Assembly (NCBI GenBank): GCA_964390845.1
Contig: CAYMIL010000001.1
Coordinates: 102,326 to 166,325 of the forward strand
DNA: 64,000 nucleotides
Origin: an uncultured Candidatus Saccharibacteria bacterium
GTDB taxonomy: Bacteria; Patescibacteriota; Minisyncoccia; Phycocordibacterales; CALRHW01
Direction: 5' to 3'
The notes below the pieces were generated by a model that made no database searches, was not told the DNA's origin, and saw only the letters and a list, made by a program, of their open reading frames with translations. The position numbers and the translations under genes were made by a program. Shown here piece by piece: positions 17,097 through 52,457 of this stretch. Every line of letters begins with the position of its first letter. Position 1 is the first letter of the stretch.

Positions 17097-18812
17097 TCAA
17101 CCAATAAGATACTCAGGCGTATTGAGTTGCATCCAGTCAAGGAGCTGTCGCATCACATACGTTGCACCAAGCTGGTTTGTGGCCGCACCTTTTTCAAGAA
17201 CAATCACAAATGCATATCGCGGGTTGTCGTATGGGAAGAAACCTGACACCCACGAATTTACAAATTGCTTTGTAACACCAAGCTGTGCGGTTCCTGTTTT
17301 TGCAGCAACACCGACATAAGGAACGTTGAGGGCGCCCGCGGTCACCGTAAACACTGCCTGTCGCATACCCTCACGAACAACCTTGAAGTCTTCATCACGA
17401 ATTGGCACGGTACGTGCGTTTTCATTTTTCTCCCCTGGTTCTTTCTTGAGGATCGTCGGCTGAAGAAGCGTGCCGTTGTTTGCGATAGCGGCAACAGAAC
17501 GCACGACCTCAATCGGTGTGAGCTGAAAACCATACTGACCGATTGCGGTATGATAGGTATCACCAATACGCCACGGATCATTGCCGAATACTTTTTTCTT
17601 CCATTCGGGGTTTGGAATAACACCCCCAACTTCTCCATTGAGATTGATACCTGTCTTTTCTCCAAGACCCATCATGCGCACATATTTTTCTATATTTGAT
17701 ATTCCAAGACCCTTCTGATCGCCGTATCCGCCACCAACAGTGTAAAAATATACGTTTGAAGAAAGCGCAAGCGCATCTCGCATATCTACCCACCCATGTG
17801 CTTTCCAGTCGACGAATGTCGTTTTTTGCGTTGGGTCGTATGGGTTTTGAATCGAAATAGATCCCGTACTCAATATTTTCTTTGATGGATCAATAAGTTT
17901 TTCGGTAAGCGCACCCAACGCAACATACGGCTTTACCACAGAACCTGGCGTATACAAACCAGAAATAACACGATTGAGAAAAGGATTGTACGGATCCGTC
18001 TGATAACTCTTAATCGCTGCCACATCATCACCCTGCGTCATCACCTGAGAACTAAACTCTGGAAAACTCGTCAGTGCGATAACTTCGCCCGTGTAAATGT
18101 CCATAATAACTCCCGCACCACCCTTAAACCCATATTCCTCAGAGGAATGCTGAATCGCTTTATATAGCTCATTCTGCACGCCGGCATCAATAGACAAGTA
18201 CACATTTTCCCCATCAACTGGTGGCTTTGTAAGGCTTTGAGATTTAATATTTCCGAGCGCATCAGTTTCGACAATTCGAACGCCGTTTTCTCCAGAAAGG
18301 GTTTCGTCGAACATCTTTTCTGCACCCTCACGCCCCACATATTTTGTCTGGTAATAAAAACCCGCGCTGTCTTTTGTAGGATACGACAAATAACCAACAA
18401 CATGAGCAATGCCTGACAATGGCGCGTAGGCGCGGCGAGCAAAATCGGGCTCTTCATCGTTGATAGAGTTTGAAGCAAGCTCTACACCCTTTCTGTCATA
18501 AATAATTCCACGGTTTGAAAATATAGACGTGTATCGCAGGCGGTTGTTTTCGCTCTGTGCAGAATATGCCTCACCCTTCTGAATCTGAAATACCCAAATT
18601 TTCCCCAAGAAAAAAAATGCAACAAGCGCAAAGAGTGCTCTGAGCGAAAGGATTGTTCGTTTTGAAATAGGTTTCTCTAAACGACCTTCAAATTGCTGAG
18701 TATCAAACTTCGGCAAATTGTGAGCGTCGATTAAAATTTCGTCAGGAAATATTTCATGATTCTGACGCACGAGATTGCGTCGGAACAATCGTGTTAATTT
18801 TCTCCACGGCAT
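17097..18812 (-). CDS. mrdA: Penicillin-binding protein 2 (elongasome transpeptidase)
   Basis: 571 aa. TM anchor, SxxK (SVVKP), SSN (SNV), KTG (KTGTA). Adjacent to mreBCD. Confidence 0.8.
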   Translation of the reverse strand: MPWRKLTRLFRRNLVRQNHEIFPDEILIDAHNLPKFDTQQFEGRLEKPISKRTILSLRALFALVAFFFLGKIWVFQIQKGEAYSAQSENNRLRYTSIFSNRGIIYDRKGVELASNSINDEEPDFARRAYAPLSGIAHVVGYLSYPTKDSAGFYYQTKYVGREGAEKMFDETLSGENGVRIVETDALGNIKSQSLTKPPVDGENVYLSIDAGVQNELYKAIQHSSEEYGFKGGAGVIMDIYTGEVIALTSFPEFSSQVMTQGDDVAAIKSYQTDPYNPFLNRVISGLYTPGSVVKPYVALGALTEKLIDPSKKILSTGSISIQNPYDPTQKTTFVDWKAHGWVDMRDALALSSNVYFYTVGGGYGDQKGLGISNIEKYVRMMGLGEKTGINLNGEVGGVIPNPEWKKKVFGNDPWRIGDTYHTAIGQYGFQLTPIEVVRSVAAIANNGTLLQPTILKKEPGEKNENARTVPIRDEDFKVVREGMRQAVFTVTAGALNVPYVGVAAKTGTAQLGVTKQFVNSWVSGFFPYDNPRYAFVIVLEKGAATNQLGATYVMRQLLDWMQLNTPEYLIG

Positions 18813-19074: not shown

Positions 19075-19869
19075 CTAGTGAGTTACAACAGACACCCATC
19101 GTAGTTGAGCGATATTGATAGGCGTCTTGCAAAATACTCGTTTAAAAAAGTTGGTTGGATTTGCCTCGATTTCAACCACCGTACCAAGGACGCTTGGTTC
19201 CATGCCTGGAATACGGATCACGTCACCCTCTACAACATCAACCTCTTGTGGGAGTCTGAGTTCAAAATTTCCTCCCCCACGTCCGATAGCGGCAACAGAT
19301 ACATTTGTTCTGTCTATCACCGCCTGTGTTTCAGTATCTACACTTGAAAAAAGTTTTGCCCGAGATGTTTTTTCATACACCTCATCAATCGTCCCCAGTA
19401 TCACTGAATCGGCAATAGTAACGCTGTTGCCCACCTGTACACCGTTGCGCTCACCTGCATCAAGTACAACCGTGTCGTACATCGATTGCGGTGGCTTCAC
19501 GAGCACAGACGCAAGAATACTGCCCGATGAGCCGGTTCGCCCCCATGCCTTTTTAAACTCTTCATTTTCATGCTCAAGCACAGAAAGTGTCGCCAAGTGT
19601 GCCTGTGCTTCAATAAGCTCTTGTGTAAGCTTTTCATTGCGCTCAAGGAGGCCATGACGCGAAGAAAGGTACGCACCAATATCGCTTCCCCTATCGACAA
19701 CAAACTGACTCATGAGCCACAGTGGTCGACCTATACCGTGTGCCATACCTGGGAACATGCGCGGGGCGACTACGCCGACAAGTATCACAAAACCCATAAA
19801 AAACACACCAACGATGTATGGAACAAATCGCTTACTGTTTCGTTTTCTACTTTGAAGGAGGTAGTTCAT
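19075..19869 (-). CDS. mreC: Rod shape-determining protein MreC
   Basis: 264 aa. N-terminal TM, coiled-coil, C-terminal MreC beta-domain. Follows mreB. Confidence 0.8.
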   Translation of the reverse strand: MNYLLQSRKRNSKRFVPYIVGVFFMGFVILVGVVAPRMFPGMAHGIGRPLWLMSQFVVDRGSDIGAYLSSRHGLLERNEKLTQELIEAQAHLATLSVLEHENEEFKKAWGRTGSSGSILASVLVKPPQSMYDTVVLDAGERNGVQVGNSVTIADSVILGTIDEVYEKTSRAKLFSSVDTETQAVIDRTNVSVAAIGRGGGNFELRLPQEVDVVEGDVIRIPGMEPSVLGTVVEIEANPTNFFKRVFCKTPINIAQLRWVSVVTH

Positions 19870-20929
19870 CTTCGTTCACGATAAGTACTTCTTTAAACGC
19901 GTCGACGTCTTCGAGAACAATACCTGCGCCGCGAGCCACAGCCGTGAGCGGATCTTCTGCGATATAGACTGGCATCTTTATACATTCATGCAAGAGCTCG
20001 GCAAGACCTTTTATAAGAGCGCCGCCACCGGCAAGATACACGCCTCGATGCATCACGTCGGCCAAAATTTCTGGAGGTGTTGTCTCGAGTACCTCTCGTA
20101 CCGCTTCAATGAGCGTATCAACAGACTGAGAAATCGCTTCGCGAATATCAGCATCCGTGATAACAACCTCTTTTGGTAGCCCCGTCACCAAATCACGCCC
20201 CTTAATAACAGCCTCCATCGGCGTGCCACTTGGGATGACAGATCCAATCGCTATCTTTACACTCTCAGCCGTCTTTTCACCAATGAGAATTTTAAATTCA
20301 CTTCGGATGTAGGAAATAATATCGTTGTTGAGCTTGTCGCCAGCAATACGAACATTTTTAGAACGGACAACACCGCCGAGAGAAATAACGGCAATATCCG
20401 TGGTGCCGCCACCAATATCAATAATCATACTGCCGACAGGATCCATCACCGGTAGACGAATACCGATAGCCGCCGCAACAGGCTCCTCGATAATGTGCAC
20501 CTCGCGTGCGCCCGCATTGCGCGTCGCGTCACGCACAGCACGCGTCTCAACGTTGGTAATACCAGACGGCACACCCACGACCACACGTGGACCAAAAAAC
20601 TTTTTACTATCTTTTTGTGCGCTATTGAGCAAATATGTAATCATCTCTTCGGTTACTTCAAAATCTGAAATAACACCATCGACGAGTGGTCGCACCGCGA
20701 CGATGTGTCCCGGCGTGCGGCCAAGCATCTGCTTTGCCTGATTGCCAATAGCAACAACACGACCAGTTTTTTGATTTACCGCAACGACAGAAGGCTCATT
20801 GATAACAACACCGCGTCCCTTTACATACACAAGTGTGTTGGCGGTTCCCAAATCAATACCAATATCATTGGAAAAGAGCGTATAGAAATACTCTATCTTT
20901 TTTTTGAGGCGCCCCCACAAATCTTTCAT
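19847..20929 (-). CDS. mreB: Rod shape-determining protein MreB (actin homolog)
   Basis: IGIDLGTANTLVYV phosphate-1 motif, DIGGGTTD phosphate-2, adenosine motif. Confidence 0.9.
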   Translation of the reverse strand: MKDLWGRLKKKIEYFYTLFSNDIGIDLGTANTLVYVKGRGVVINEPSVVAVNQKTGRVVAIGNQAKQMLGRTPGHIVAVRPLVDGVISDFEVTEEMITYLLNSAQKDSKKFFGPRVVVGVPSGITNVETRAVRDATRNAGAREVHIIEEPVAAAIGIRLPVMDPVGSMIIDIGGGTTDIAVISLGGVVRSKNVRIAGDKLNNDIISYIRSEFKILIGEKTAESVKIAIGSVIPSGTPMEAVIKGRDLVTGLPKEVVITDADIREAISQSVDTLIEAVREVLETTPPEILADVMHRGVYLAGGGALIKGLAELLHECIKMPVYIAEDPLTAVARGAGIVLEDVDAFKEVLIVNEDELPPSK

Positions 20930-24445: not shown

Positions 24446-25156
24446 CTATTCGCGAGTGCGTGAGCGGGCGCTTATGTTGGGTAGTGTAAGTGAGAGATGT
24501 TCGAGTATCATTTTAACCGACGAAGACTTGTCAGACAGATACCTGCGACACTGTTCAACATCTGCAAGTATCCGCGCGTATGATGCGTCACTACGATCCC
24601 ACAGCGTATACAGATGCCGTAGAAGCGCATCCACTACCCCACGCGCACCCTGTCGGTCTTTTGATTCGACAATATCCTCACACAAAGACAGACGTCGTGC
24701 GGGTGATACAGAAAGAAATTTTTGTACATCAAAGCCCGTCTGCGTCTTGTTTCCATGATGTGCCAACATACAGACGCGAGAATGAACCGTCGGCAACAAC
24801 ATATCTGCAGAAGGTACCAACAAAAAGAAATGTGTCCCCTCGGTCGGCTCCTCAAACACCTTAAGCAGGGCATTTTGCGCCTCCACTGTTATCGCATTAC
24901 ACGAAATCACAAACACCTTCATACCCGCCTCACCAAACGCTCGTTTAAGCTGGAGTTCTTTAAGAAATCTACCGTCATCGATACCAAATGAATCGTACGC
25001 TATACGCACAAAATCTGGGTTGCCTTGCGTGGAGAAACCCACCTGCGCTTCAAAAAAAGCTCGCAGTGCATCGTGAGCACTCTCAATATCACCTTCCACC
25101 ACGTATGCATGATGAAGCGTGCCCGTGTGTGCGTATGCCGTGATCAACTCATTCAT
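24446..25156 (-). CDS. holB: DNA polymerase III delta-prime-like clamp loader subunit (short)
   Basis: 236 aa. HAYVVEG N-terminal motif without intact P-loop, and NALLKVFEEP (the LLKTLEEP clamp-loader motif). Confidence 0.55.
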   Translation of the reverse strand: MNELITAYAHTGTLHHAYVVEGDIESAHDALRAFFEAQVGFSTQGNPDFVRIAYDSFGIDDGRFLKELQLKRAFGEAGMKVFVISCNAITVEAQNALLKVFEEPTEGTHFFLLVPSADMLLPTVHSRVCMLAHHGNKTQTGFDVQKFLSVSPARRLSLCEDIVESKDRQGARGVVDALLRHLYTLWDRSDASYARILADVEQCRRYLSDKSSSVKMILEHLSLTLPNISARSRTRE

Positions 25157-26169
25157 TATCGTTTTGCGATAATACTCTTTTTATAAACATCAAGATGGTC
25201 GAGTGCGATACCAGTACCCTTCACTACACAGTAGAGTGCGTCTTCGGCCAATGTTGCCTTTACACCCGTGCGGCGATAGATCAAATCGGGAAGGTTTCGT
25301 AGCTGTGATGAGCCACCTGTCATGATAATGCCATTGTCAATAATATCTGAGGCAAGCTCTGGTGGCGTGTCCTGAAATACATCTTTAATCGCCTTTACCA
25401 TTTCACGAAGTTCTTTACTAATAGCCTTTACGACCTCGTTTGTCTTTATTTCAACTGAGCGCGGTAAGCCGGTTACAAAATCGCGACCCTTAATAGTGAT
25501 AGCGAGCTCTTCATCAAGAGGAATCGCTGAACCAACTTTTATTTTTATATCTTCTGCTGTTTTGTCGCCAATACCGAGATTGTATTGCTTCTTTATGTAA
25601 TCAGTAATTGCATAGTCTATCTTGTTGCCCGCGCACTTCACAGATGTCGCCGCAACAATACCGCCAAGTGAGATGACGGCAACATCCGTGGTGCCGCCAC
25701 CGATATCAACAATCATGTGTCCCATTGCCTCATGGATCGGAATACCGGCGCCAATCGCCGCAAGAATAGGCTCCTTCACAACATACGCATTTTTTGCGCC
25801 AGCACGAACAGCCGCCTCCACAACAGCACGGCGCTCTGTCGAAGTAACACCCGCCGGCACAGAGACAAGTACTTCAGGCTTTGAGATATTCCATTTTCCA
25901 AGCGCTTTGTTGATGTAATAGCGAAGCATTGCTTCGGTGACACGATAATCCGCAATAACACCATCGCGCATTGGTCGATATGCGATGATACTGTCTGGTG
26001 TACGACCAATCATGCTTTTTGCCTCAAGACCGATTGCCATGATTCGGTTATCTTCTTCGGACACCGCGACCACAGAAGGTTCGTTGAGAACAATGCCTTG
26101 CCCAGGCACATATACAAGTGTGCTTGTCGTTCCCAAATCAATACCAAGTTTTTTAGAGAAAAACCCCAT
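25156..26169 (-). CDS. MreB-like actin homolog, second paralog (Mbl-like)
   Basis: Start at the internal Met (MGFFSKKLGIDLGTTSTLVYV), which has an AGGTG RBS. DIGGGTTD motif. The 120-aa N-terminal extension of the raw ORF is rejected. Confidence 0.85.
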   Translation of the reverse strand: MGFFSKKLGIDLGTTSTLVYVPGQGIVLNEPSVVAVSEEDNRIMAIGLEAKSMIGRTPDSIIAYRPMRDGVIADYRVTEAMLRYYINKALGKWNISKPEVLVSVPAGVTSTERRAVVEAAVRAGAKNAYVVKEPILAAIGAGIPIHEAMGHMIVDIGGGTTDVAVISLGGIVAATSVKCAGNKIDYAITDYIKKQYNLGIGDKTAEDIKIKVGSAIPLDEELAITIKGRDFVTGLPRSVEIKTNEVVKAISKELREMVKAIKDVFQDTPPELASDIIDNGIIMTGGSSQLRNLPDLIYRRTGVKATLAEDALYCVVKGTGIALDHLDVYKKSIIAKR

Positions 26170-26229
26170 AGGTGCACCTATCATACGGCCTTTTGTGCCG
26201 AGACACAACACTATCCACAGTTTGAATAT

Positions 26230-26249
26230 ATATAGCATATATGCTATAT
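26230..26249. promoter_or_regulatory. Perfect 20-bp AT-rich palindrome (ATATAGCATATATGCTATAT) in the divergent intergenic region, candidate operator
   Basis: Seen directly. Lies 30 bp upstream of a gene whose product begins with an XRE-type HTH domain. Confidence 0.45.
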
Positions 26250-26280
26250 TACTATCCATTACATAGTAGTCGTATACGCC

Positions 26281-27813
26281 ATGGCACAACGCGCACCAAA
26301 GCCACAAACGGGTTCCGCATCTATTGGAAAAATGATACAGACACTGCGAGAAAAACGTGGTATCACCCAAGAGGAGTTTGCAAAACAGCTCAACACCACT
26401 CAGAGCGCTATTGCGCGCATCGAAAAAGGTGAGCAGAACCTTACGACAGAAATGATTGCAAAAATTAGCAAGGTACTCAACCACGATCTTGTGCGTGTTT
26501 CTACGGGCGCGATCAATGTTGAGATTCATGGTGGCAAACCACTCTCTGGAACCATCGTTACCAAAACATCAAAAAATGGAGCGATGGGTCTTTTGTGCGC
26601 CTCTCTTCTCAACAAAAACACGACACTCCTTAAGAATGTTCCGAAAATTGAAGAAGTGCACCGCATGATAGAAGTCTTTCAGAGTATCGGCGTTCATGTC
26701 GCGTGGAAAGGTAATGACGTAGAAATCAAACCACCAGCAAAACTTTCACTCTCTTCTATCAATGTTGCGGCGGCAGAAAAGACCCGAAGCATCATCATGC
26801 TCATTGGTCCCCTTATTCACCTTCTACAGTCCTTTTCTCTCCCCCAGCCTGGCGGTTGCAAACTCGGCTCTCGTACTGTCCGTCCACATTTTTTTGCACT
26901 CGAAAAACTTGGCGTAAAGATAAAAACCACATCAGATGCATACGAGGTAAAAGCATCAAAGCTCAAAGCACACGATATTGTGCTCTATGAAAGTGGCGAC
27001 ACCGTCACCGAAAACGTACTCATGGCTGCTGCACGCACAGAAGGCACAACAACGATAAAATTTGCTTCAGCAAACTATATGGGGCAAGAACTCTGCTTTT
27101 TCCTTGAAAAACTTGGTGTAACCGTAGAAGGTATTGGCACCACTACGCTTGTAGTACATGGTAAAAAAAATATCGATGTCCCTGTTACCTACTACCTCAG
27201 CGAAGATCCGATCGAATCAATGTTCTTTATCGCTGTCGCAATCGTTACAAACTCTTCTATTACTATTGAGCGTTGCCCTATCGATTTCCTCGAAATTGAA
27301 TTGCTCAAGCTTGAAAAAATGGGCTTCAAGTACAAAATTCTCAAGCGATATAAAGCGGACAACGGACACACCAATCTTGTCGACATCAAAACCCTACCAT
27401 CAAAACTAAAAGCACTCGAAGAAAAAATCGAATGCCGGCCCTATCCAGGTCTCAATATAGACAACTTGCCATTCTTCGCGGTCATCGCAACACAAGCAAA
27501 AGGAACAACCTTCCTTCACGACTGGGTATACGAAAAGCGCGCGATTCACTACAAAGAGCTCGACAAGCTCGGTGCCGACACACTCCTTGCCGACCCGCAC
27601 CGTATGTACATCACCGGCCCCACAAAGCTCAAGCCTGCAGAAATCATCTGTCCACCAGCCCTCCGCCCTGCAGCTATCATTCTTATTGGTATGCTTGGAG
27701 CACACGGACGCTCTGTTCTTCGCAACATCTACAGTATCAACCGTGGCTACGAAGACATCATTGCTCGCCTTGAAAGTATCGGTGCGGATATCAAGATATT
27801 GCGAGAGCTGTAA
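26281..27813 (+). CDS. murA: Fusion protein: N-terminal XRE-family HTH domain + UDP-N-acetylglucosamine 1-carboxyvinyltransferase (MurA)
   Basis: Residues ~15-70 form an HTH_XRE (IQTLREKRGITQEEFAKQLNTTQSAIARIEKGEQN). The remainder aligns along MurA, including catalytic Cys (LPQPGGCKLGSR) and C-terminus IYSINRGYEDIIARLESIGADI. Confidence 0.8.
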   Translation: MAQRAPKPQTGSASIGKMIQTLREKRGITQEEFAKQLNTTQSAIARIEKGEQNLTTEMIAKISKVLNHDLVRVSTGAINVEIHGGKPLSGTIVTKTSKNGAMGLLCASLLNKNTTLLKNVPKIEEVHRMIEVFQSIGVHVAWKGNDVEIKPPAKLSLSSINVAAAEKTRSIIMLIGPLIHLLQSFSLPQPGGCKLGSRTVRPHFFALEKLGVKIKTTSDAYEVKASKLKAHDIVLYESGDTVTENVLMAAARTEGTTTIKFASANYMGQELCFFLEKLGVTVEGIGTTTLVVHGKKNIDVPVTYYLSEDPIESMFFIAVAIVTNSSITIERCPIDFLEIELLKLEKMGFKYKILKRYKADNGHTNLVDIKTLPSKLKALEEKIECRPYPGLNIDNLPFFAVIATQAKGTTFLHDWVYEKRAIHYKELDKLGADTLLADPHRMYITGPTKLKPAEIICPPALRPAAIILIGMLGAHGRSVLRNIYSINRGYEDIIARLESIGADIKILREL

Positions 27814-27825
27814 TAATCGTTAGTA

Positions 27826-29736
27826 TTGAGGGTAATGAAAGTCATCCACGTCATACCCATTTCTAGAGGCATTCTCATGGAGCGCCTCTCATACTTCACA
27901 TCTACCGACGTTCCCGCCGGTACGATGGTTGTCGTACCATTGCGGAAAAAAAGCATCCGCGCGATAGTTGTCCAATCCGAAGATGTGAGCACAGCAAAGT
28001 CTGAAATAAAATCATCTACATTTTCATTGCGAAAAATGGAGCACGTTGAAGCGCACCAATTTCTCTCTCCAGAGTTTATGGCGAGTGCTGAAGCAATAGC
28101 TGACTATTTTGCTACGACGACTGGTAGCGTGCTCGGCGCAATGATCCCGAAAGCAATCCTCGACCCCGCAGCAGAATTAATTTCCGAACTTCCAGATACT
28201 GTTGTGCGTCCACACACGTCAGAACAACTTGTTCTCCAAGCAGATGACGAGGAACGCTTCTCAGACTACAAAAGCCTTATCCGCGAAGAATTCGCTCGCG
28301 GATTTTCAGTCTTTCTCTGTGTTCCTACAATAGAAGACGCGAAGCGCGCACGAGGCGCACTTGAAAAAGGTATCGAGCAGTATACGTTTTTACTTCACAG
28401 TAGTCTCAAGAAAAAAGATGTTGCGGTGGCATGGAACGGCGCCTTACAACAATCTCACCCTGTACTCATCATCGCTACTGCGCAGTTTTTGTGTATACCA
28501 AAGAAAAATATTGGCACCATCATTATAGAAAAAGAAGGGTCCCGAGCATACAAAACACAAACTCGGCCATTTCTCGACGCACGCACCTGTGCGTCGATAT
28601 ATGCAAAAAAAATCAGAGCCCGGCTTCTCATGGGCGACACCCTACTACGCACAGAAACAATGTGGCGGCTCAAAAACGACGAGCTTGTCGAATACTCTCC
28701 TCTCAAATTCAGATCCGCGACATCAGCTTCAGCTATTATTGTCGACACACGAAAAGAGCCTACCTCCGAAGACCAGAAAAAAGAAGTTGCTTTTAGCACG
28801 CTGTCTCCTGAGCTCGGCAAACTTATTGAATGGAATAAGGAACGAAGCGAACACATGTTTATCTTTGGCGTACGAAAAGGATTCGCGCCCCTTACTGTCT
28901 GTGGAGACTGTGGCACTGTTGCCCGATGCACCGTATGCTCAGCGCCTGTTGTACTGCATAGCGGTATCGGAGAAAATTATTTCGAATGCCATACCTGTGG
29001 TAAGCGACGCGGCGCGAAAGAAACGTGTTCTGTCTGCAAAAGTTGGAAGCTTGTCACACTCGGGGTTGGCGTAGAGCTTATCGAGAAAGAACTGAAGCAA
29101 AAATTTCCAGACGTAACAACATTTCGCCTCGATGCCCACTCGGTCACCACACACGCAAAAGCGGTCGATGTCGTCAAAAAATTTTACGCAACACCTGGCA
29201 GTGTGCTTATCGGCACAGAAATGGCACTATCATACCTCGGAGAGCGTATCGAAAACTCAGCAATAGCATCTATCGACCCCCTCTTCTCTCTTCCCGATTT
29301 CCGTATTGGAGAAAAAATATTATCGATTCTCCTCAAAATACGTGCCCTCACAAAAGAAAATTTTGTGATACAAACCCGCGACCCAGAACACGCAATTTTT
29401 ACACACGCTATCAAGGGCAACCTCGTCGACTTTTATCGAGACGAAATAGAAGAGCGCAAAACCTTTGGCTACCCACCGTTTTTTATCTTCATAAAGATTA
29501 CACTCCAAGGAGAAGAACGTGCGGTCCGTTCTGCAATTGAAGAACTTCCACCGCTCTTTGAGCCATACCATACAGATATTTACCCCGCATTCACCTCGAC
29601 TGTAAAAGGTAAGTACGTCATGCACGCATTGATTAAGATTCCACATGGAGAATGGCCCAACAAAGAGGTTGTTGCATCCCTCCGTTCCCTACCACCTCAA
29701 TATATGGTAAAAGTTGACCCCGACAGCATGTTGTAG
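27826..29736 (+). CDS. priA: Primosomal protein N' (PriA)-like, with degenerate helicase motifs
   Basis: 636 aa. PriA N-terminal 3'-DNA-binding domain, Cys-rich zinc-binding region (CGDCGTVARCTVCSAP...CHTCGKRRG...CSVCKS), C-terminal domain. Walker A position reads QADDEERF and DEEH reads IIEKEG. Confidence 0.7.
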   Translation: MRVMKVIHVIPISRGILMERLSYFTSTDVPAGTMVVVPLRKKSIRAIVVQSEDVSTAKSEIKSSTFSLRKMEHVEAHQFLSPEFMASAEAIADYFATTTGSVLGAMIPKAILDPAAELISELPDTVVRPHTSEQLVLQADDEERFSDYKSLIREEFARGFSVFLCVPTIEDAKRARGALEKGIEQYTFLLHSSLKKKDVAVAWNGALQQSHPVLIIATAQFLCIPKKNIGTIIIEKEGSRAYKTQTRPFLDARTCASIYAKKIRARLLMGDTLLRTETMWRLKNDELVEYSPLKFRSATSASAIIVDTRKEPTSEDQKKEVAFSTLSPELGKLIEWNKERSEHMFIFGVRKGFAPLTVCGDCGTVARCTVCSAPVVLHSGIGENYFECHTCGKRRGAKETCSVCKSWKLVTLGVGVELIEKELKQKFPDVTTFRLDAHSVTTHAKAVDVVKKFYATPGSVLIGTEMALSYLGERIENSAIASIDPLFSLPDFRIGEKILSILLKIRALTKENFVIQTRDPEHAIFTHAIKGNLVDFYRDEIEERKTFGYPPFFIFIKITLQGEERAVRSAIEELPPLFEPYHTDIYPAFTSTVKGKYVMHALIKIPHGEWPNKEVVASLRSLPPQYMVKVDPDSML

Positions 29737-29762
29737 TATTTCTAGTATATAATTGACGAATC

Positions 29763-30281
29763 ATGGAGATTGTACAGAGACACGACCCTATATTGCGCGC
29801 GCAAGCAGCTGAGGTGCCCCTAGCCGACATCTCAACTCCTCGTATTAAAAATGTCATAGCGGACATGAAGCGCATTCTTGCGACACAACACGACGGTGTT
29901 GCCATAGCAGCCCCACAGATAGGTCACTCCCTACGCATATTTGTTGTATCTAAAAAAGTCTTTGCACTTGAAGAAGACAATGAGGATACGGCGCAATACG
30001 AAGACCTCACATTTATCAACCCCACAATTACGCGCATGTCCAAAAAAATGAAAGCTGTCGATGAAGGGTGTTTGAGCGTGCGTTATTTGTATGGCAAAGT
30101 CATGCGCGCCGAAAAAGCAACCGTTGTCGCATATGACGAACACGGAAAGAAATTTACACGGCACGGCTCTGGCCTGTTGGCACAAGTTTTCCAGCATGAA
30201 ACCGACCATCTCGACGGCACACTTTTTATAGACAAAGCGACAGATCTTCAAGAAATACCACCTGAAGACAGCGCACACTAG
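29763..30281 (+). CDS. def: Peptide deformylase
   Basis: Motifs GVAIAAPQIG, EGCLS, QHETDHLDG. Confidence 0.9.
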   Translation: MEIVQRHDPILRAQAAEVPLADISTPRIKNVIADMKRILATQHDGVAIAAPQIGHSLRIFVVSKKVFALEEDNEDTAQYEDLTFINPTITRMSKKMKAVDEGCLSVRYLYGKVMRAEKATVVAYDEHGKKFTRHGSGLLAQVFQHETDHLDGTLFIDKATDLQEIPPEDSAH

Positions 30282-30285
30282 CACC

Positions 30286-31161
30286 ATGTTGAACACTCAC
30301 GCATCCACTCCGATAGTATTCTTTGGCACGTCAGCATTTTCAGTATCCGTCTTAGAAACACTCGCCTCTCGCGGGATTACACCTTCACTTATCGTCACCG
30401 CACCAGATAAGCCCCAAGGTCGTAAACTCATCCTCACACCCCCACCCGCAAAGATGTGGGCAGATGCTCATGGTGTTGCCGTCATTCAGCCCTCAACCCT
30501 CCGTGCTCAGCGCATCGCCCCCGAGACACTCGAAACACTTCGCTCATACGCCGATGGCGTGTTTATCGTCGCATCATACGGTCTCATTATTCCGAAAGAT
30601 ATTTTAGATATCCCTCAACACAAAACGCTCAACATTCACCCATCGCTCTTGCCGGCACTACGCGGACCTTCTCCTATTCAAACAGCAATACTGCAAGAAA
30701 AAGAAACTGGGGTAACAATCATGCGCCTAGACGAAGAAGTGGATCACGGCCCGATTGTCGCACAGCAAAAGACACCCTACACACCATGGCCTCCATACTA
30801 CGATGAGCTTGAGCACGCCCTCGCATGCGCTGGTGCAAACCTCCTTGCAGACATTCTTCCACAATGGATCAATGGGGCTATTGCGGAACATGAACAAGAC
30901 CACATGGCGGCAACATACTCTAAGAAAATTTCAAAGGAAGATGGCCTAATTTCCCTCGACGCACCCGCAGAAGAAAACCTGAGAAAAATTCGCGCTCTCT
31001 CTCGATGGCCAGGCGCGTATTTCTTTGCCGACAGACGTGGTACACCCATTCGCGTGCGCATAAAAAGCGCATCGCTTTCAGGCGACACGCTTTTTATCGA
31101 ACGAGTTGTTCCCGAAGGAAAACGAGAAATGGATTATCGTGATTTCCTAAACGGTCTGTAG
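30286..31161 (+). CDS. fmt: Methionyl-tRNA formyltransferase
   Basis: N-terminal formyltransferase domain (NIHPSLLPALRGPSPIQ) and C-terminal domain. Directly follows def. Confidence 0.9.
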   Translation: MLNTHASTPIVFFGTSAFSVSVLETLASRGITPSLIVTAPDKPQGRKLILTPPPAKMWADAHGVAVIQPSTLRAQRIAPETLETLRSYADGVFIVASYGLIIPKDILDIPQHKTLNIHPSLLPALRGPSPIQTAILQEKETGVTIMRLDEEVDHGPIVAQQKTPYTPWPPYYDELEHALACAGANLLADILPQWINGAIAEHEQDHMAATYSKKISKEDGLISLDAPAEENLRKIRALSRWPGAYFFADRRGTPIRVRIKSASLSGDTLFIERVVPEGKREMDYRDFLNGL

Positions 31162-35369: not shown

Positions 35370-35594
35370 ATAAATAAAAAATTCCTCTTGTAATGAGGAA
35401 AGATAGCGACGTTTTATCTTTCCCAAACTGGGCCAGATGGAGCACCTTGTGTACACAGGTTGCTGAATGGTCATTGAGCTGGATCTCTCGCATTCTCTTG
35501 ATATATTCAGTTGTGATTACATTTTAGCACATGTTAATTATGTGGGGCAACAAAAGAAAAAGAGAGCGCTTTCGTGCTCTCTCATCCTATAGTG

Positions 35595-37836: not shown

Positions 37837-38334
37837 TTATCGCGCCACAAACGACGCGCCGACCATTTCCCCATCTGGTGACCGCATAAGCGTATCTGTA
37901 TGGTATCCAAACTGCCCATCACCATTTTCTCTATAAATACCCACATAGTATGTTGCACCATCTGTGGTGCCCCGAAGTAGTGGTACAGGGAAATTGTCAT
38001 ATTCACCAGCAGGTAAATCTCGTGCACCGAGTACATTTCCCAAATCGCCATCTTTATCTTCAAACACAGCAACCCAACCTGGCTCGGTGAGTTTCGCATG
38101 AGCAATCATCACAACTTTTCCAGCGACCTGATCCTCCACAACAACCGTATCGTCCGTACGCACAGCACCCACAACAGCCGCCGTCTGCTGTGACGCATTT
38201 TCAGAGGCTGTGTCTGATAAACGAGAATCCATGTCGCCACGACCACCCCACACCGCAAAACCAGTGCTCACGCCGAGCACAAACCCAATAACAGTGCCGA
38301 TAATAATTCTATTCTGTGGGGTTATATTTTTCAT
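37837..38334 (-). CDS. Hypothetical membrane-anchored secreted protein
   Basis: 165 aa. N-terminal TM anchor, then a soluble domain. No family recognised. Confidence 0.45.
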   Translation of the reverse strand: MKNITPQNRIIIGTVIGFVLGVSTGFAVWGGRGDMDSRLSDTASENASQQTAAVVGAVRTDDTVVVEDQVAGKVVMIAHAKLTEPGWVAVFEDKDGDLGNVLGARDLPAGEYDNFPVPLLRGTTDGATYYVGIYRENGDGQFGYHTDTLMRSPDGEMVGASFVAR

Positions 38335-38373
38335 AAAGAAAGTATAACACGCACACAGCTGTCCACAGTTTCC

Positions 38374-40044
38374 TTACCCTGCAATTGGCAACTCAACATA
38401 GAACTGTGAGCCCCTGCCCTCACCTTCAGACTCTGCCCAGACACGGCCGTTGTGCGCCTTCACAATCTCTTTAGCAACATAGAGCCCCAGACCTGTTCCA
38501 CGAATATTGACCTTGTTTGCGTTTTCTGCGCGCTTAAACTTTGCAAAGAGTTTCGGAATAATCTCAGCAGACATACCGATACCTGTGTCTTTGACCGCAA
38601 ACAACACCACTCCTTTTGCTGGGTCTTTTGTGAGTGACACGGTAATCGAACCCTGTGGTGTGTACTTTACTGAGTTATCAATAAGATTTGCGACGACCTG
38701 CTTAAACTTATCGAGGTCAGCATTGACCACAAACTTCTGTCGCTCATCAAGCTGGATAGTGAGGTCGAGGCCGGCTTTGTCTATGTTTGGCTTCAGCTCA
38801 CCCGCAACCTCTCTCACCATATCTTTAAGATCGAGTGGACGCATATCGTATTTCATAGTTCCAAGCTCGATACGAGAAATATTAAGGTAGTCGTTGACGA
38901 CGTTTGTGAGCGTGTTTGTTGATTCGTAAATTTTCTGTACAGCATCACGCACATCCGGTGCAACATCTCCGTAATCCCCTTCAAGAATGAGTGACGAATA
39001 CCCCTTCATTGCAGTAAGCGGGCTTCGGAGTTGATGTGTCGCAAACGAAACAAATTCTGTCTTTTGGACATCAAGTTCTTTGAGGCGGGTGTTGGCGTGC
39101 TCTAAGCTGGTATTTGTTTTCTTTAAGTTTTCGGCCAAAATCTCGATTTCTTCACGTGATTTTATTTCTCTTTTTACACTTCTTATAAGTTGATATCCTA
39201 ATATCGAAAACAGAGCGAGTGTTACAAAAACAACATATCTTACATTTTGTATATTTCTAACAAATAGAATCGAAAACGTGAGCAACCACAGTGTCACTAC
39301 AATGGCTTGTGTACTAATCAACTTTATGTTAAATGCCTTAAATTTAACGACTAAATACACAAGAAATGCAATAAATAGAGGCATCCCTAAAAGTCCGACC
39401 TGAGCAATAACCCAATTTTCAGTCAAACTTCCAATAATATTACCTGAGGAAAAAGCAAAAAGAAAAACAATTATACCCGCCAAAAATAGACCTATCTCTT
39501 TTCTGCGCCTTATTTCAATTGCCATCTGACCAAAACCAACAAATAAAACCGAGAAGCTAAGAAGAATTTCTAGTCCATACGTATAAAAAATAACGAGATT
39601 GCTCTCAACGGCATCACAATAAGAAACATCAATACCAGGAAGAAATCCTTTAGTTGGCAATATTATCGCTACAGGTAAAAGCACAGCCATCAAAAATAGT
39701 TTTTTACTGAAAGGTAAATCTTTTCTTTTTATAAACACATAAGCAAAGTAGAAAGAAACACCGTAAATTAGTACTTCGCATAATATCTGGAGACTCCAAT
39801 AAAACAAAACCAAATCTGGTCTATTGCTTGCCCATAAAAGCACATCGATTACGGCCCAGCTTATAAAAAGAAAAACAACATTTAAAAAAAATCTAATTGA
39901 GAGATCCTGACGTTTATGAAAAAGCAAGGCTGCAAATACTAAAGCGGCAAGAATTGCGACAAAATGAGAGTAGTAAAGTAAGGTTGGAACATTACTTGAG
40001 AAAATAAAATGTTTCGCTGGCTCCCAAGGGCAAAAAATTTCCAT
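38374..40044 (-). CDS. Sensor histidine kinase with polytopic (about 7 TM) N-terminal sensor domain
   Basis: HisKA H-box (HQLRSPLTAMKGY), HATPase_c (N, G1, G2 boxes: GTGLGLYVAKEIV). Start set at the Met just downstream of the neighbouring gene's stop. Confidence 0.8.
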   Translation of the reverse strand: MEIFCPWEPAKHFIFSSNVPTLLYYSHFVAILAALVFAALLFHKRQDLSIRFFLNVVFLFISWAVIDVLLWASNRPDLVLFYWSLQILCEVLIYGVSFYFAYVFIKRKDLPFSKKLFLMAVLLPVAIILPTKGFLPGIDVSYCDAVESNLVIFYTYGLEILLSFSVLFVGFGQMAIEIRRRKEIGLFLAGIIVFLFAFSSGNIIGSLTENWVIAQVGLLGMPLFIAFLVYLVVKFKAFNIKLISTQAIVVTLWLLTFSILFVRNIQNVRYVVFVTLALFSILGYQLIRSVKREIKSREEIEILAENLKKTNTSLEHANTRLKELDVQKTEFVSFATHQLRSPLTAMKGYSSLILEGDYGDVAPDVRDAVQKIYESTNTLTNVVNDYLNISRIELGTMKYDMRPLDLKDMVREVAGELKPNIDKAGLDLTIQLDERQKFVVNADLDKFKQVVANLIDNSVKYTPQGSITVSLTKDPAKGVVLFAVKDTGIGMSAEIIPKLFAKFKRAENANKVNIRGTGLGLYVAKEIVKAHNGRVWAESEGEGRGSQFYVELPIAG

Positions 40045-40054
40045 AAAGTACGTA

Positions 40055-40894
40055 TTATAGCTTTTTTGCAAAAACCTTAAAGTTTCTGAACCCGTTACCA
40101 AATTGATAATCAACAATAAGTTGAACCCTGTCTTTTTTAGTTACCTCTATATCTGAATCGAGCGGAACACAAACTGGACCATTTAGTGCAAGTGTGTCAC
40201 CGATAGAGGTTTTTTTATTTAACCAAGTCGAACTTTGAAGATAAATACTGTTTAAGGTACCTGTTTTTTTAATTTTAATAATATGTTCCGAATGGTGTTC
40301 CATTAAATTACTTTTATTCAGCAGAACGGAATCGAGAAGTGTTGGGTCGGAAAGACGTTTCATTTTTGGTTTTGGTAAAAATTTCCAAAAATGTTTAACC
40401 ATCCGCATATTAAATCCAAAATCATAAAAATTTGTCTCCGTAAGCAAAACGGATGTGTCTTCTTTGCAAGGAATAAATACTGTTTTCTCGTCTACATACC
40501 CCTTTTCAAAAAGCCTGTTTAGTGCCCAGATTTGGAACTCATCCACCATTCCTGTAGTCAACATTTCCATCGTAACAACATCAATAGTTGTACCCTCCGG
40601 AAGACGAATATTACGTGCATCGCCAAGCATAACTTGCACCACGTCACCATATCCATTTCTCTGAATATTCTCGTGGGCGAGTTTTGCGACAAATGGGTCA
40701 AACTCTATAGAAAAAACTTTTTTTGCTCCGGCGCGAGCCGCAAAGAGAGCAAGAATTCCGGAACCCGTTCCAACGTCAAGAACAACGCTGTCCGGCCCCA
40801 CAGCCGCATTAATAGCTTGTTCAAATTTCCTTGTTCTTTCCTCATCAAGGAGACACTGTGTAACTAAATCAATAGAGCTAAATGTTTCGTCCAT
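40055..40894 (-). CDS. Class I SAM-dependent methyltransferase with PRMT-like motifs
   Basis: Motif I VVLDVGTGSGILALFAARAGA, post-I IEFDP, motif II IDVVTMEML. Reminiscent of protein arginine methyltransferases. Confidence 0.6.
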   Translation of the reverse strand: MDETFSSIDLVTQCLLDEERTRKFEQAINAAVGPDSVVLDVGTGSGILALFAARAGAKKVFSIEFDPFVAKLAHENIQRNGYGDVVQVMLGDARNIRLPEGTTIDVVTMEMLTTGMVDEFQIWALNRLFEKGYVDEKTVFIPCKEDTSVLLTETNFYDFGFNMRMVKHFWKFLPKPKMKRLSDPTLLDSVLLNKSNLMEHHSEHIIKIKKTGTLNSIYLQSSTWLNKKTSIGDTLALNGPVCVPLDSDIEVTKKDRVQLIVDYQFGNGFRNFKVFAKKL

Positions 40895-40961
40895 GGATAA
40901 GGTGGTAATTTCTATCTTACAGGGAAATTATAACAAACGAAGTTCTCAAAGAAAAGCAAAC

Positions 40962-41570
40962 CTAAAATCTTCGTGTATGCTTAATGTGTCGAAAAGAAAG
41001 AAGAAACCACATACTTGCGTGACATAAGATCTCAGCAAAAACATAGGGTAACTCCATCCAATTGTCGAGGCGATGAATTATTAGAGTGAGGTTGAGAAAA
41101 TCCATAATCGTCCACAATATCCATGGAGTAGATATTAAATAGGTTTCTTTTGGAAGATTCCTCCAATAAGGAACATAACTAATTGGTATTGCAAGAATAG
41201 CGATTGCGTGCGCCCAGTATTGCTCCCTGAAACAAAGCCATATGATTACGGCTAAAATAGATACGGCGACGGACAAAATATCTGTTATTGCTTCCGACCG
41301 GTTCTCCCATTTATCTTCTCCGAGCCTCCAAACATAGATTAAAATTATTAGACAAGCAATTGGAGTTGTTGCCAATGGTAATGTTTTTACCCAATCACCC
41401 GATACCCAATGAAACGTAACAACTTCTACACATGAAGAAAAAGTCCAAATTAACCAGGACCATCGATTTGGTATAGGATGATTAGGTTTTCTCAGTTCCC
41501 GAAAATAGGAGACGTCCGCTGCCGTTCCAAAAACAACAGCCAAAATAGCCAATAAAATAATAGCATCCAT
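40962..41570 (-). CDS. Hypothetical polytopic membrane protein
   Basis: 202 aa, about 6 TM helices, Trp-rich. Confidence 0.45.
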   Translation of the reverse strand: MDAIILLAILAVVFGTAADVSYFRELRKPNHPIPNRWSWLIWTFSSCVEVVTFHWVSGDWVKTLPLATTPIACLIILIYVWRLGEDKWENRSEAITDILSVAVSILAVIIWLCFREQYWAHAIAILAIPISYVPYWRNLPKETYLISTPWILWTIMDFLNLTLIIHRLDNWMELPYVFAEILCHASMWFLLSFRHIKHTRRF

Positions 41571-41740
41571 ATCACCGCTTCTTAATTTTGAACATTATCA
41601 TCTTCAGTAGAACCAACCTCACTTTGTACAACATAGAAATCGCGGACAATCATTGTTCTGTAAAAAGTTAGCGCGATAGAAATCAATAGAATTAAGACAA
41701 ATAATCCTATAGAAATTTTTGATTTTTTATCCATAGTTTT

Positions 41741-42133
41741 TTATTCTATATTATGAGAAGGATACCTTGTACCTCTTTTTAAGAAATTTTTTTCAATATC
41801 TTTCAGCCCAAACTTTTTATAAAAATAGTTCAGAATCAGCTCAGTATCCATACCATTTTGACATGTATACACATCAGCACTCACAAACCTTCTTTTTGGA
41901 AAAGTGTGAATACTTATGTGACTTTCTGTAAGAGCAATAATACCTGTCCAACCACCAGGATCCTTCTTATTATTTGGTTCAGCTTTATATATCTGGACCT
42001 TAGCTAGGGATTTCATACCGAGGAGGAAAACCAGTTCATTCAATGCGTGCGCCACTAAGTTTTTATCATCGAGGAGTTTTTCTTCCCCTCCATAACCATC
42101 AATTGTGAGATGTTCACCAAAATGCTCTATCAT
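41741..42133 (-). CDS. speH: S-adenosylmethionine decarboxylase proenzyme (small SpeH-type)
   Basis: ESHISIHTFP (self-processing ES|HIS motif; canonical ESHISIHTWPE) and YTCQ. Confidence 0.7.
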   Translation of the reverse strand: MIEHFGEHLTIDGYGGEEKLLDDKNLVAHALNELVFLLGMKSLAKVQIYKAEPNNKKDPGGWTGIIALTESHISIHTFPKRRFVSADVYTCQNGMDTELILNYFYKKFGLKDIEKNFLKRGTRYPSHNIE

Positions 42134-42163
42134 ATATGATATATTAGTGCCAACTAAAGCTCT

Positions 42164-42403
42164 TTAATTTATTGCTTCAATTCTAACATCTTTTGCAATT
42201 ATCTCTAGGGACGGGTCACTATAGTTGGAATGTTGATCTTCATAGCCGTAGAAAACAAACCGTTTATATCCATGGTTTTTAGGAACTTTCCCAACATCGT
42301 CTGTATGACCCAACTCATAATTGGATTTCAGCGTGTTTGTCATAAAATCACTCTCTTCCGTTTCAGTCACCAGCACTTGAACACTAGAATTTAGAGTCCT
42401 CAC
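42164..42403 (-). CDS. Small hypothetical protein
   Basis: 79 aa ORF downstream of the RHS toxin gene and its first small ORF. Confidence 0.3.
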   Translation of the reverse strand: MRTLNSSVQVLVTETEESDFMTNTLKSNYELGHTDDVGKVPKNHGYKRFVFYGYEDQHSNYSDPSLEIIAKDVRIEAIN

Positions 42404-42456
42404 AAAACCAAGAACATCCGTGAATAGGGACTTGATTAGAACATGCGATTCATTTT

Positions 42457-42702
42457 CTACTTTAGCAGTCGCTCTGGAATTACATCACCACGTATCTCTA
42501 TACCAATAATTTTTCCAGCCTGATCAATATCGACAACAATGTCCCCTTTAAAATCCTGTCCTCCCCGTACAGTATTTCCATCAATTACCATTTGCTGTGT
42601 TGCCTGTGGTGGATAGGTATCAGTATTTTGTAGATGAATATAGGAGACCCAAGAACTGCCTGTATTTTCACTTTCTATTTCTATGTTATTTTTTTTAATC
42701 AT
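42457..42702 (-). CDS. DUF2283-like small protein (candidate immunity or antitoxin)
   Basis: 81 aa. DIVVDIDQAGKIIGIEIRG resembles the DUF2283 core. Starts 7 nt after the RHS gene stop. Confidence 0.4.
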   Translation of the reverse strand: MIKKNNIEIESENTGSSWVSYIHLQNTDTYPPQATQQMVIDGNTVRGGQDFKGDIVVDIDQAGKIIGIEIRGDVIPERLLK

Positions 42703-42709
42703 TGATTTT

Positions 42710-48367: not shown

Positions 48368-48558
48368 AAAAATGGTCTAAAAAGCACTTTTTCTATTAAT
48401 TTGATACTACCATAAACTTTTATAGTTCAAGAATTTCTAAAGTTTTTCTAAAGTACTTATCCACAACATATATTGTCGAGATGGCACAAAACAAGGTATG
48501 CTGATATCTTCGTCGTTTTTTGACGAGGAGGTATCGCATCAGCGTGCCTAGGCCACAC

Positions 48559-49224
48559 ATGCGCATCCTCATCATCGAAAACGATACGACTACTCGCAAG
48601 TTTTTAGAGTCGAACCTCGAATCATGCTGTTTTGCCGTTGACAGTGTACCCGATGGTGCACGTGGATCATTTATGGCACGCACCAACGAATATGACCTCA
48701 TCTTGTGCGCATATATAGTCGCAGAAAAAACTGCACCCGATATGTGTCGAGAAATACGCAACGCGGAAAAACATACTCCTATAATTATCATTTCTGAACA
48801 CTCCGACATCGACGCTAAAATAGAATGCTTCGAGGCTGGTGCTGACGACTATATTGTAAAACCGTGCGTGTTTGATGAAGTTCTTGCGCGAATACGTGTT
48901 GTACTAAAACGACCACGCACAATCGCGTGCGCCGTGTTTGAAATACAAGATATTAGATTAGAAACGGGCACCCAGCGCCTACTCTACAAAAACAAAGAGG
49001 TATATCTTACAAGGAAAGAATACGCCCTCCTCGAATATCTGATGCGCCATCGCGGACGCCTCCTTACAAGAGGAATGATTCTCGAACATGTCTGGGACAT
49101 TGATGCAAACCCTTTTTCAAATACAGTCGAAACACACATTATGAATCTAAGAAAAAAGATTCGTGATATGGAAAAGAAGAGAATCGTAAGTGTGCCAGGT
49201 CGAGGATACATGTTGCGCGGATAA
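48559..49224 (+). CDS. OmpR-family response regulator, atypical receiver (phospho-acceptor Asp replaced)
   Basis: Receiver plus winged-helix (RGYMLRG) domains. Aligned with OmpR, the LDLMLP position reads LCAYIV (D to C) and the DD pair reads END. Confidence 0.75.
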   Translation: MRILIIENDTTTRKFLESNLESCCFAVDSVPDGARGSFMARTNEYDLILCAYIVAEKTAPDMCREIRNAEKHTPIIIISEHSDIDAKIECFEAGADDYIVKPCVFDEVLARIRVVLKRPRTIACAVFEIQDIRLETGTQRLLYKNKEVYLTRKEYALLEYLMRHRGRLLTRGMILEHVWDIDANPFSNTVETHIMNLRKKIRDMEKKRIVSVPGRGYMLRG

Positions 49225-49390
49225 CACCTTATAAAAACTTTAAGTTTTCATGATGCGATTTCTTTTACGATAGTACTGTGGGAAGTTGGTCGAATTTTCC
49301 CACAAACAATAATGCACTTTTACTAATCAATCATGAAGTAGTACAGCAACTTCTGGCGATAGTTCACAAGAGATGTGCATCATTGCAAAA

Positions 49391-49414
49391 ACAACCGCCC
49401 AACATGGCGGTTGT
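49391..49414. terminator. Bidirectional Rho-independent terminator
   Basis: ACAACCGCC-CAACAT-GGCGGTTGT hairpin flanked by AAAA and TTTT, between convergent genes. Confidence 0.65.
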
Positions 49415-49443
49415 TTTATCTACACATTCCCACCTGTCAGAAA

Positions 49444-51613: not shown

Positions 51614-51793
51614 TTAACACGACATGACAATATTCTCGATTTGTTGCCATTTTTTCATATCAAACAGTGCAACACCTGTTGGCAATTCAACATCACACGC
51701 CAAATCCTTATTATGAACACATGTTATATTTTCTCGACAATAGTCCCAAAACAACTGTCGCTTTGATTCTTTGAGGAGATGGGTATCATTCAT
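51614..51793 (-). CDS. Small hypothetical protein
   Basis: About 60 aa (MNDTHLLKESKRQLFWDYCRENITCVH...). Stop overlaps the next start. Confidence 0.25.
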   Translation of the reverse strand: MNDTHLLKESKRQLFWDYCRENITCVHNKDLACDVELPTGVALFDMKKWQQIENIVMSC

Positions 51794-51866
51794 TGTTGTA
51801 TTATATACCCAAAAAAGAACGCGCAAACCCCCTCGGGTTTGCGCGTTATCTGTCGGTGAACCAGTG

Positions 51867-52412: not shown

Positions 52413-52457
52413 TGGTCAAAGAACGGCACTATCATCCATTATCTACAAAAGGCCCTA

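Follow-up and report, generated by a model that had tools for sequence, protein, structure and literature searches.

A PriA ortholog without a canonical ATPase site, probably a natural pseudohelicase, from a Paceibacteria bacterium

The priA gene and its lost nucleotide-site motifs

The 64-kb stretch of DNA analysed here (contig CAYMIL010000001.1, hereafter the window) derives from a bacterium of the class Paceibacteria (Parcubacteria, Patescibacteria/Candidate Phyla Radiation, CPR) and contains a gene for the replication restart protein PriA in which no canonical ATPase site is recognisable. The encoded protein is a true PriA and consists of the modules and former motifs given below, all on the + strand of the window.

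27835-29736, +: coding sequence of priA, the probable pseudohelicase; 633 amino acids plus stop, with the start taken from the alignment of relatives and the family consensus
27835-28149, +: 3'-end-binding domain (3'BD); Pfam PriA_3primeBD PF17764, 4.8e-9
28150-28224, +: linker at the position of the winged-helix domain; 25 residues, poorly conserved
28237-28260, +: former motif I (Walker A); QADDEERF opposite E. coli GVTGSGKT (MAFFT)
28528-28539, +: former motif II (Walker B); EKEG opposite E. coli DEEH (MAFFT)
28549-28584, +: remodelled aromatic-rich loop (ARL); YKTQTRPFLDAR
28633-28647, +: former motif III; GDTLL, against GSATP in E. coli and GDxLL in the family
28900-29037, +: Cys-rich region (CRR) in lobe 2; four CxxC pairs, with all eight Cys present
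29329-29352, +: former motif VI; LLKIRALT, against QVAGRAGR in E. coli
29371-29733, +: C-terminal domain (CTD), S10-like in E. coli PriA; retained

The initial annotation had placed the gene at the mechanically called open reading frame (ORF) 27826-29736 (+). This frame exists and comprises 636 codons, opening at TTG 27826, but its start is better placed slightly downstream. The real start is most likely ATG 27835, the fourth codon of the listed ORF, since most of the 150 representatives of the family (defined below) pair their first or second residue with residue 4 or 5 of the ORF, and the family consensus likewise opens at this ATG. The database gene call P0001 is 619 amino acids long, 17 residues shorter than the ORF, and its first residue is probably the Met found at position 18 of the ORF. 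The start of priA is thus called inconsistently, at TTG 27826, at ATG 27835 or as the shorter 619-residue protein. Residue numbers of the window PriA are counted here from ATG 27835.

The NCBIfam model TIGR00595 ('replication restart helicase PriA') matches residues 149-630 with an E-value of 3.6e-68 and a score of 230.4 bits, which practically coincides with the curated cutoff of 230.35 bits. A phmmer search against the sequences in the Protein Data Bank (PDB) retrieves the PriA structures 4NL4, 6DGD and 8FAK at E-values of about 1e-33 (3.7e-33 for 4NL4 and 6DGD); 4NL4 is the PriA of K. pneumoniae, and E. coli PriA is also among the PDB matches. The TIGR00595 and phmmer alignments both open at residues 147-149, just past the position of the P-loop, which is therefore left unmatched. 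Some database records of the relatives carry the name 'primosomal protein N'' and others 'hypothetical protein', probably because the family scores at the TIGR00595 cutoff.

The DNA-binding and Zn-binding parts of PriA, which the initial annotation had described as conserved, are indeed present. The match of the 3'BD to PF17764 reaches 36.4 bits, with a gathering cutoff of 22.7. Among the residues that form the 3'-end pocket (as defined in PMC5778457), Y18 is kept (Y in 147 of the 150 representatives) and K61 is kept as K or R (146/150), while D17 is replaced by S or T in the family. The two RecA-like lobes are present, as seen with TIGR00595, phmmer and Foldseek. In the CRR the residues C356, C359, C365, C368, C385, C388, C398 and C401 are each found in at least 93% of the family, and the region is predicted to be able to bind two Zn; Pfam Zn_ribbon_PriA stays below threshold in the window protein (E 0.3). 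The family consensus is conserved up to the end of the CTD, for which a PF18074 match is precomputed in several family members and is undetected in the window protein.

The winged-helix domain is absent. A gap of about 90 residues lies opposite E. coli residues 107-205 (approximate limits) in the MAFFT alignment, and PF21213, which matches E. coli PriA at 1.3e-30, does not match the window protein. The linker at this position has a mean conservation of 0.20 and is mostly coil in the structure model, at a predicted local distance difference test (pLDDT) value of about 69. The N-terminal region is known to vary in length among PriA proteins (PMC4504706), so that the missing winged helix does not exclude membership of the PriA family.

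To compare the helicase motifs, the E. coli PriA reference (from NC_000913) was aligned with the window protein and its relatives in three separate MAFFT runs, containing 120, 150 and 102 relatives, and the motif coordinates were confirmed by translating the exact positions. The sequences reported in the initial annotation for Walker A (QADDEERF) and Walker B (EKEG) are reproduced in this way. Across the family, motif I follows the pattern of a Q, three to four mostly acidic residues, an R and an aromatic or aliphatic residue, and motif II the pattern [ED]-[RK]-E-[SN], in which the position of the catalytic Glu321 is basic in 100 of the 150 representatives. In motif VI a deletion of five residues takes out AGRAG, including the first arginine (R584), and the position of R587 remains; this gap is present in 150/150 representatives. 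The aromatic-rich loop, which in E. coli PriA couples DNA binding to ATP hydrolysis and the residues of which were defined there (PMC5175346), has Pro for W333 and Leu for Y335 in the window protein, with K328 and R338 retained. The family shows the same picture, with an invariant Pro at the W333 position, an aliphatic residue at the Y335 position, and K328 and R338 kept. The motif Ia Pro, the R-[RK]-G of motif IV and the GTE of motif V are also retained in the window protein. The statement that both helicase ATPase motifs are destroyed is hence correct for motifs I and II, but it understates the extent of the change, as motif III, motif VI, W333/Y335 and the winged helix have been lost as well.

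Scanning the whole protein with regular expressions reveals no [AG]xxxxGK[ST], GxGK or DExH, and no P-loop is found in any of the six reading frames across 27700-29800. The Pfam domains DEAD, ResIII, Helicase_C and PriA-like_WH give zero matches to the window protein even at E <= 1; E. coli PriA, used as a control, is matched by all four. The canonical ATPase site is thus absent from the window PriA as far as its sequence can tell, and the view that this protein has no canonical means of ATP hydrolysis stands, with no intact Walker motif elsewhere in the protein.

The overall fold has nevertheless been retained. The structure predicted by AlphaFold2 from an alignment of 40 sequences has a pLDDT of 87.4 and a predicted TM-score (pTM) of 0.87. 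The top PDB matches of this structure model in Foldseek are all PriA structures (8FAK, 6DCR, 4NL4, 6DGD and 4NL8), with E-values of 4e-42 to 1.5e-29 and TM-scores of 0.69-0.76; for 8FAK, 6DCR and 4NL4 these are 4e-42 to 4e-36 and 0.72-0.76. The alignments to the PriA structures cover 659-756 columns for the 633-residue model, and the next family, Mfd, follows at about 1e-8. In the model, strand 131-135 passes almost directly into helix 138-154, at pLDDT values of 94-97, and the P-loop is, in this predicted structure, absorbed into the helix.

Conservation of the altered motifs across the family

The family was collected by an exhaustive phmmer search, from which 150 representatives of 50%-identity clusters were taken, all scoring at least 477 bits; 378 full-length members were examined in total. 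In addition, the species representatives of GTDB were scanned with a profile made from a closer 16-sequence alignment, and relatives were found in at least 528 of them. The exact window protein and its relatives are found in metagenome-assembled genomes of Patescibacteria, under the labels Parcubacteria, Paceibacterota, Paceibacteria, Minisyncoccia, Taylorbacteria, Zambryskibacteria and Pacebacteria.

The degenerate motifs are present in all 150 cluster representatives and shared by all 378 members examined. The position of the P-loop lysine K230 is Arg in 377/378 members (R141 in the window protein), and GxGK[ST] near motif I occurs in 0/378. The position of D320 is D or E in 378/378 and that of E322 is E in 368/378, while the surviving position of motif VI is R or K in 354/378. 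Lobe 1, the former ATPase lobe, is the region richest in near-invariant residues, with 13 of these. The alignments indicate that the loss of the motifs is a lineage-wide selected state and not a private decay. The initial annotation had considered a helicase-dead PriA unusual, which is only partly right, as the altered motifs are the norm across a large clade and a natural PriA pseudohelicase was already published in 2015.

One family member, P0248 (645 amino acids), has kept DEEH at the Walker B position and has no P-loop. Its DEEH looks like a relic of an active ancestor, as judged from the alignment. The nearest relatives of P0248 are about 42% identical to it and belong to the same pseudohelicase family, and a search outward from this protein found no point at which a canonical PriA reappears in the Patescibacteria. 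P-loop-like strings in P0148, P0206 and P0231 were inspected and rejected as chance matches at non-homologous positions.

It could be argued that the gene is decaying, or that the altered motifs stem from an assembly or frameshift artefact. Nothing beyond the missing motifs themselves points in this direction, and the conservation of the family excludes it. The reading frame is an uninterrupted one of 633 amino acids, the identical protein, bar the called start, is recovered on several independent contigs, and 378 full-length relatives carry the same derived motifs. Moreover, the structure model is of high confidence, and the gene diverges at the rate of its neighbours def and fmt, the median identity to relatives over 57 genome pairs being 49% (PriA), 57.5% (Def) and 50.7% (Fmt). 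The constraint on PriA is thus of housekeeping level.

The same alignments bear on whether ATP, or another nucleoside triphosphate, might still be hydrolysed through a non-canonical site. The persistence of acidic residues at the D320 and E322 positions in the proportions given above, together with one arginine of motif VI, the RxG of motif IV and the GTE of motif V, would be compatible with such a site. Still, the P-loop glycines and lysine are absent in 378/378 members, and a K to R change alone abolishes the activity of E. coli PriA (PMC4504706). With the five-residue deletion in motif VI, the loss of motif III, a mostly basic Glu321 position, no P-loop elsewhere and no helicase ATP-binding Pfam domain detected, residual hydrolysis is highly improbable.

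Genomic surroundings of priA

The genes directly downstream of priA, and the replicative helicase gene that is presumed to encode its client, are the following.

29763-30281, +: def, peptide deformylase, directly downstream of priA; Pfam 2.3e-44
30286-31161, +: fmt, methionyl-tRNA formyltransferase; Pfam
3764-5158, +: dnaB, replicative helicase; Pfam DnaB_C 1.6e-102 and DnaB 1.2e-35

The priA-def-fmt neighbourhood is known from Firmicutes and others. For the present family, 80 related loci were kept from the scan of GTDB species representatives, from 80 different assemblies, and the arrangement is retained in 59 of these (def downstream in 59/80, fmt in 57/80). The preservation of this gene order indicates that the priA of the window is the ortholog and not a stray paralog. 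The dnaB gene lies about 23 kb upstream of priA, where the initial annotation had located it, and its product has an intact Walker A motif (ARPSVGKT). DnaB is the presumed client of the window PriA.

The missing motifs would also be accounted for if this gene were a diverged paralog and the helicase work were done by a canonical, ATP-hydrolysing PriA from another part of the genome, of which 64 kb were examined. Within this window tblastn with the E. coli and window PriA sequences yields nothing below E = 0.1 that could be a second priA, canonical or otherwise. In 59/80 relatives the family protein is encoded at the orthologous position of the priA-def-fmt arrangement, and the 80 loci each come from a different assembly. 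Genomes of Patescibacteria are reduced, those of the host organisms included, which also speaks against a duplicated priA. Such a division of labour is therefore very unlikely.

Other features of the window include the following.

11537-13246 and 17097-18812: two PBP2-like transpeptidases
19075-19869: mreC
19847-20929 and 25156-26529, -: two MreB paralogs
24446-25156, -: DNA polymerase III delta'-like protein, 236 amino acids; DNA_pol3_delta2 1.3e-15
26281-27813, +: XRE-type helix-turn-helix (HTH) domain (HTH_3, 7e-15) fused N-terminally to an enzyme of the MurA/EPSP-synthase fold; 510 amino acids
34419-35474, -: metK, S-adenosylmethionine synthetase
35411-35507, -: SAM-I riboswitch (Rfam RF00162, 56.2 bits), directly upstream of metK
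42710-48367, -: 1885-residue protein with SpvB, FG-GAP and RHS-repeat domains, polymorphic-toxin-like
60846-63359, +: 837-residue protein with an MG2 (alpha-2-macroglobulin-type) domain and a C-terminal dockerin

A homolog of the HTH-MurA protein is located just upstream of priA in 56 of the 80 related loci, and the fusion or the neighbourhood is hence conserved in the clade. The second MreB ORF has a long N-terminal extension that overlaps the HTH-MurA gene on the opposite strand; this extension is probably untranslated, and the protein is called as 360 amino acids in L002. The delta'-like protein has no P-loop in its sequence, as expected for delta'. The mechanical start of the metK ORF at 35474 overlaps the SAM-I riboswitch, so that the true start of metK lies further downstream. 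The region 38000-50000, which contains the SpvB/RHS gene, has a G+C content of 0.37-0.43, compared with 0.45-0.50 elsewhere in the window, and is possibly an island that this reduced genome acquired by horizontal transfer. The ORFs at 57431-60088 (-) and 51771-52976 (+), of 885 and 401 amino acids, respectively, have no Pfam match.

Comparison with known PriA proteins and proposed role

The canonical PriA proteins (TIGR00595/PRK05580), including those of E. coli and K. pneumoniae (4NL4), share with the window protein the 3'BD, the two RecA-like lobes, the CRR with eight cysteines and the CTD. They differ from it in possessing Walker A and B, motif III, motif VI and the winged-helix domain. The E. 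coli PriA from which the winged helix was deleted (6DCR) is the second-best Foldseek match (E 1.3e-38, TM-score 0.75), with the lowest root-mean-square deviation among the full-length matches. In this respect the window protein is a natural counterpart of the winged-helix deletion, but 6DCR is an engineered deletion with an active ATPase core.

PriA variants of E. coli in which the P-loop lysine is substituted as it is in the window protein, K230R (priA300) and K230A, are devoid of ATPase and helicase activity and yet assemble primosomes (PMC5778457; PMC4504706). These are single engineered changes in a canonical helicase that works together with PriB and DnaT, whereas in the window protein every motif of the nucleotide site has disappeared by natural evolution and no PriB or DnaT is recognised.

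The closest known parallel, and the only similar one to have been examined in the laboratory, is the PriA of Deinococcus radiodurans, described as a natural pseudohelicase by Lopper, Boone & Morrow 2015 (PLoS One 10:e0133419; PMC4504706). Like the window PriA, the protein of Deinococcus-Thermus is a natural ortholog with degenerate motifs I and II and an Arg in place of the P-loop lysine, and no obvious gene for PriB or DnaT is seen in either lineage. Both proteins are also expected to work alike, by binding forks and recruiting DnaB without unwinding, for the window family by analogy. The window protein combines the sequence features of a PriA pseudohelicase, namely orthology to PriA, non-consensus motifs I and II and loss of the P-loop lysine. 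The two lineages belong to different phyla, the window family being placed in the Patescibacteria, class Paceibacteria, and the loss in Paceibacteria is presumably independent of that in Deinococcus, which is known here from its published description. The nucleotide site has been erased more thoroughly in the window family than in Deinococcus PriA: the P-loop glycine scaffold, motif III, the W and Y of the aromatic-rich loop and the winged helix are gone, and motif VI is deleted in part.

Helicase activity was stated in a 2017 review to be conserved in PriA 'except in Deinococcus' (PMC5778457). No description of a PriA from Patescibacteria, CPR or Parcubacteria was found in full-text searches of the literature. 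The Paceibacteria thus constitute a new, very large lineage of a known kind of pseudohelicase, and not a new type of system.

The actinobacterial models (PRK14873) score the window protein at 91 bits or less, far below the 230 bits of the PRK05580/TIGR00595 models, which places it outside the actinobacterial subfamily. Mycobacterial PriA reportedly carries a flag in UniProt as a protein without detectable helicase domains. If that flag is right, actinobacterial PriA is another lineage with a non-helicase PriA; a literature search for actinobacterial PriA lacking the motifs found no paper.

The most satisfactory explanation of these observations is that the orthologous PriA of this Paceibacteria bacterium probably acts as a natural pseudohelicase, serving as a platform for fork recognition and DnaB reloading without unwinding. 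A role as sensor of forks or D-loops and as a platform for the loading of DnaB is suggested by analogy with the ATPase-dead PriA proteins of E. coli and D. radiodurans and with cryo-EM work. Although E. coli PriA K230R has neither ATPase nor helicase activity, it can assemble primosomes, and in vivo it behaves almost like the wild type by way of the PriA-PriB route (PMC5778457; PMC4504706); only the PriA-PriC route requires the helicase activity of the E. coli protein (PMC5778457). The PriA of D. radiodurans, in which the lysine of GKT is naturally an arginine and motifs I and II are poor, shows neither ATPase nor helicase activity; its affinity for single-stranded DNA and forks is nevertheless close to normal, and it interacts directly with DnaB (PMC4504706). 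In addition, recent cryo-EM structures show that fork binding itself repositions the CRR, which encircles the single-stranded lagging-strand template and exposes a partner-docking surface, unwinding by PriA being required only if the lagging arm is duplex (PMC10175261; PMC13594977). The scaffold role with hand-off to DnaB proposed in the initial annotation is in line with both D. radiodurans PriA and priA300, and by this analogy it is the best-supported reading.

In this mechanism the window PriA would recognise abandoned forks or D-loops, with the pocket of the 3'BD binding the nascent leading-strand 3' end and the lobes, CRR and CTD binding the arms of the fork. It would then offer a platform on which DnaB can be reloaded onto the single-stranded lagging-strand template without unwinding, either through direct contact or through an adaptor or loader. 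Such a platform would act on forks that already expose single-stranded DNA on the lagging strand, or on those whose arm a different helicase has cleared beforehand. The old ATP pocket appears from its conservation to have been rebuilt into a conserved charged cluster and not to be decaying. This cluster would comprise the acidic stretch and the invariant Arg at the N-terminus of helix alpha-1, the [ED]-[RK]-E of motif II and one arginine of motif VI, and may stabilise the N-terminus and dipole of helix alpha-1 as well as the lobe interface in place of a bound nucleotide.

Several points weigh against this interpretation. Forks with a duplex lagging strand need unwinding by PriA in E. coli before the partner proteins can bind (PMC13594977), and since a duplex lagging arm needs unwinding, the pseudohelicase would be limited to gapped forks or would depend on another helicase. 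No gene for PriB, DnaT, DnaD or a loader is identified within the window, and the case against a second canonical priA is likewise made from these 64 kb. DNA binding by Paceibacteria PriA and its interaction with DnaB are extrapolated from Deinococcus and E. coli, and the charged cluster may be a salt-bridge arrangement, as read from sequence and secondary structure only. Finally, the replacement of D17 by S or T may alter the recognition of the 3' end.

Some of these features could also indicate that the PriA fold was kept but re-purposed for something other than replication restart, for instance for fork protection or DNA-end binding, to assist the loading of DnaB at the origin, or as a regulator that only marks branched DNA. 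The former ATP pocket and the aromatic loop have been rebuilt into new, strongly conserved sequences and not merely lost, the protein has no winged helix, a different residue stands at the D17 position of the 3'-end pocket, and no restart partners are seen in the window. Against such a change of function, all PriA-specific modules (3'BD, CRR and CTD) are kept, with CRR cysteines that are invariant or nearly so, and the gene has stayed at its ancestral position in front of def and fmt. The ATPase-dead PriA proteins of E. coli and Deinococcus still perform, or are fit for, restart, and small genomes seldom retain a 1.9-kb gene without a core role. Re-purposing is thus considered unlikely, and a pseudohelicase that functions in replication restart is preferred.

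A bolder extension, put forward tentatively and with some doubt, is that in the whole class Paceibacteria, which makes up a large part of the CPR, replication restart depends on this minimal PriA, which has neither an ATP site nor a winged helix, as may all loading of DnaB outside the origin. The charged cluster, with the acidic QxDDEER segment as a helix cap, would then be a built-in 'nucleotide mimic' that locks the two RecA-like lobes in one state, and DnaB would be contacted directly, without PriB, DnaT or DnaD. If this is true, the Paceibacteria pseudohelicase would have arisen independently of that of Deinococcus and would be the more radical of the two, and it would represent a natural minimal restart system.

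For specialists in replication restart, as well as for annotators, it is of note that the ATPase motifs of PriA have been fully dispensed with in another lineage, a very large one that comprises at least 528 species-level genomes, while the rest of the protein is under strong selection. Relatives of the window PriA are wrongly labelled when they are annotated as 'helicase'. The family offers a naturally minimised PriA, with no winged-helix domain and no ATP site, for studying the recruitment of DnaB without PriB or DnaT. Its conservation supports the view that the essential task of PriA is the structure-specific recognition of forks and the nucleation of the primosome, and not unwinding.

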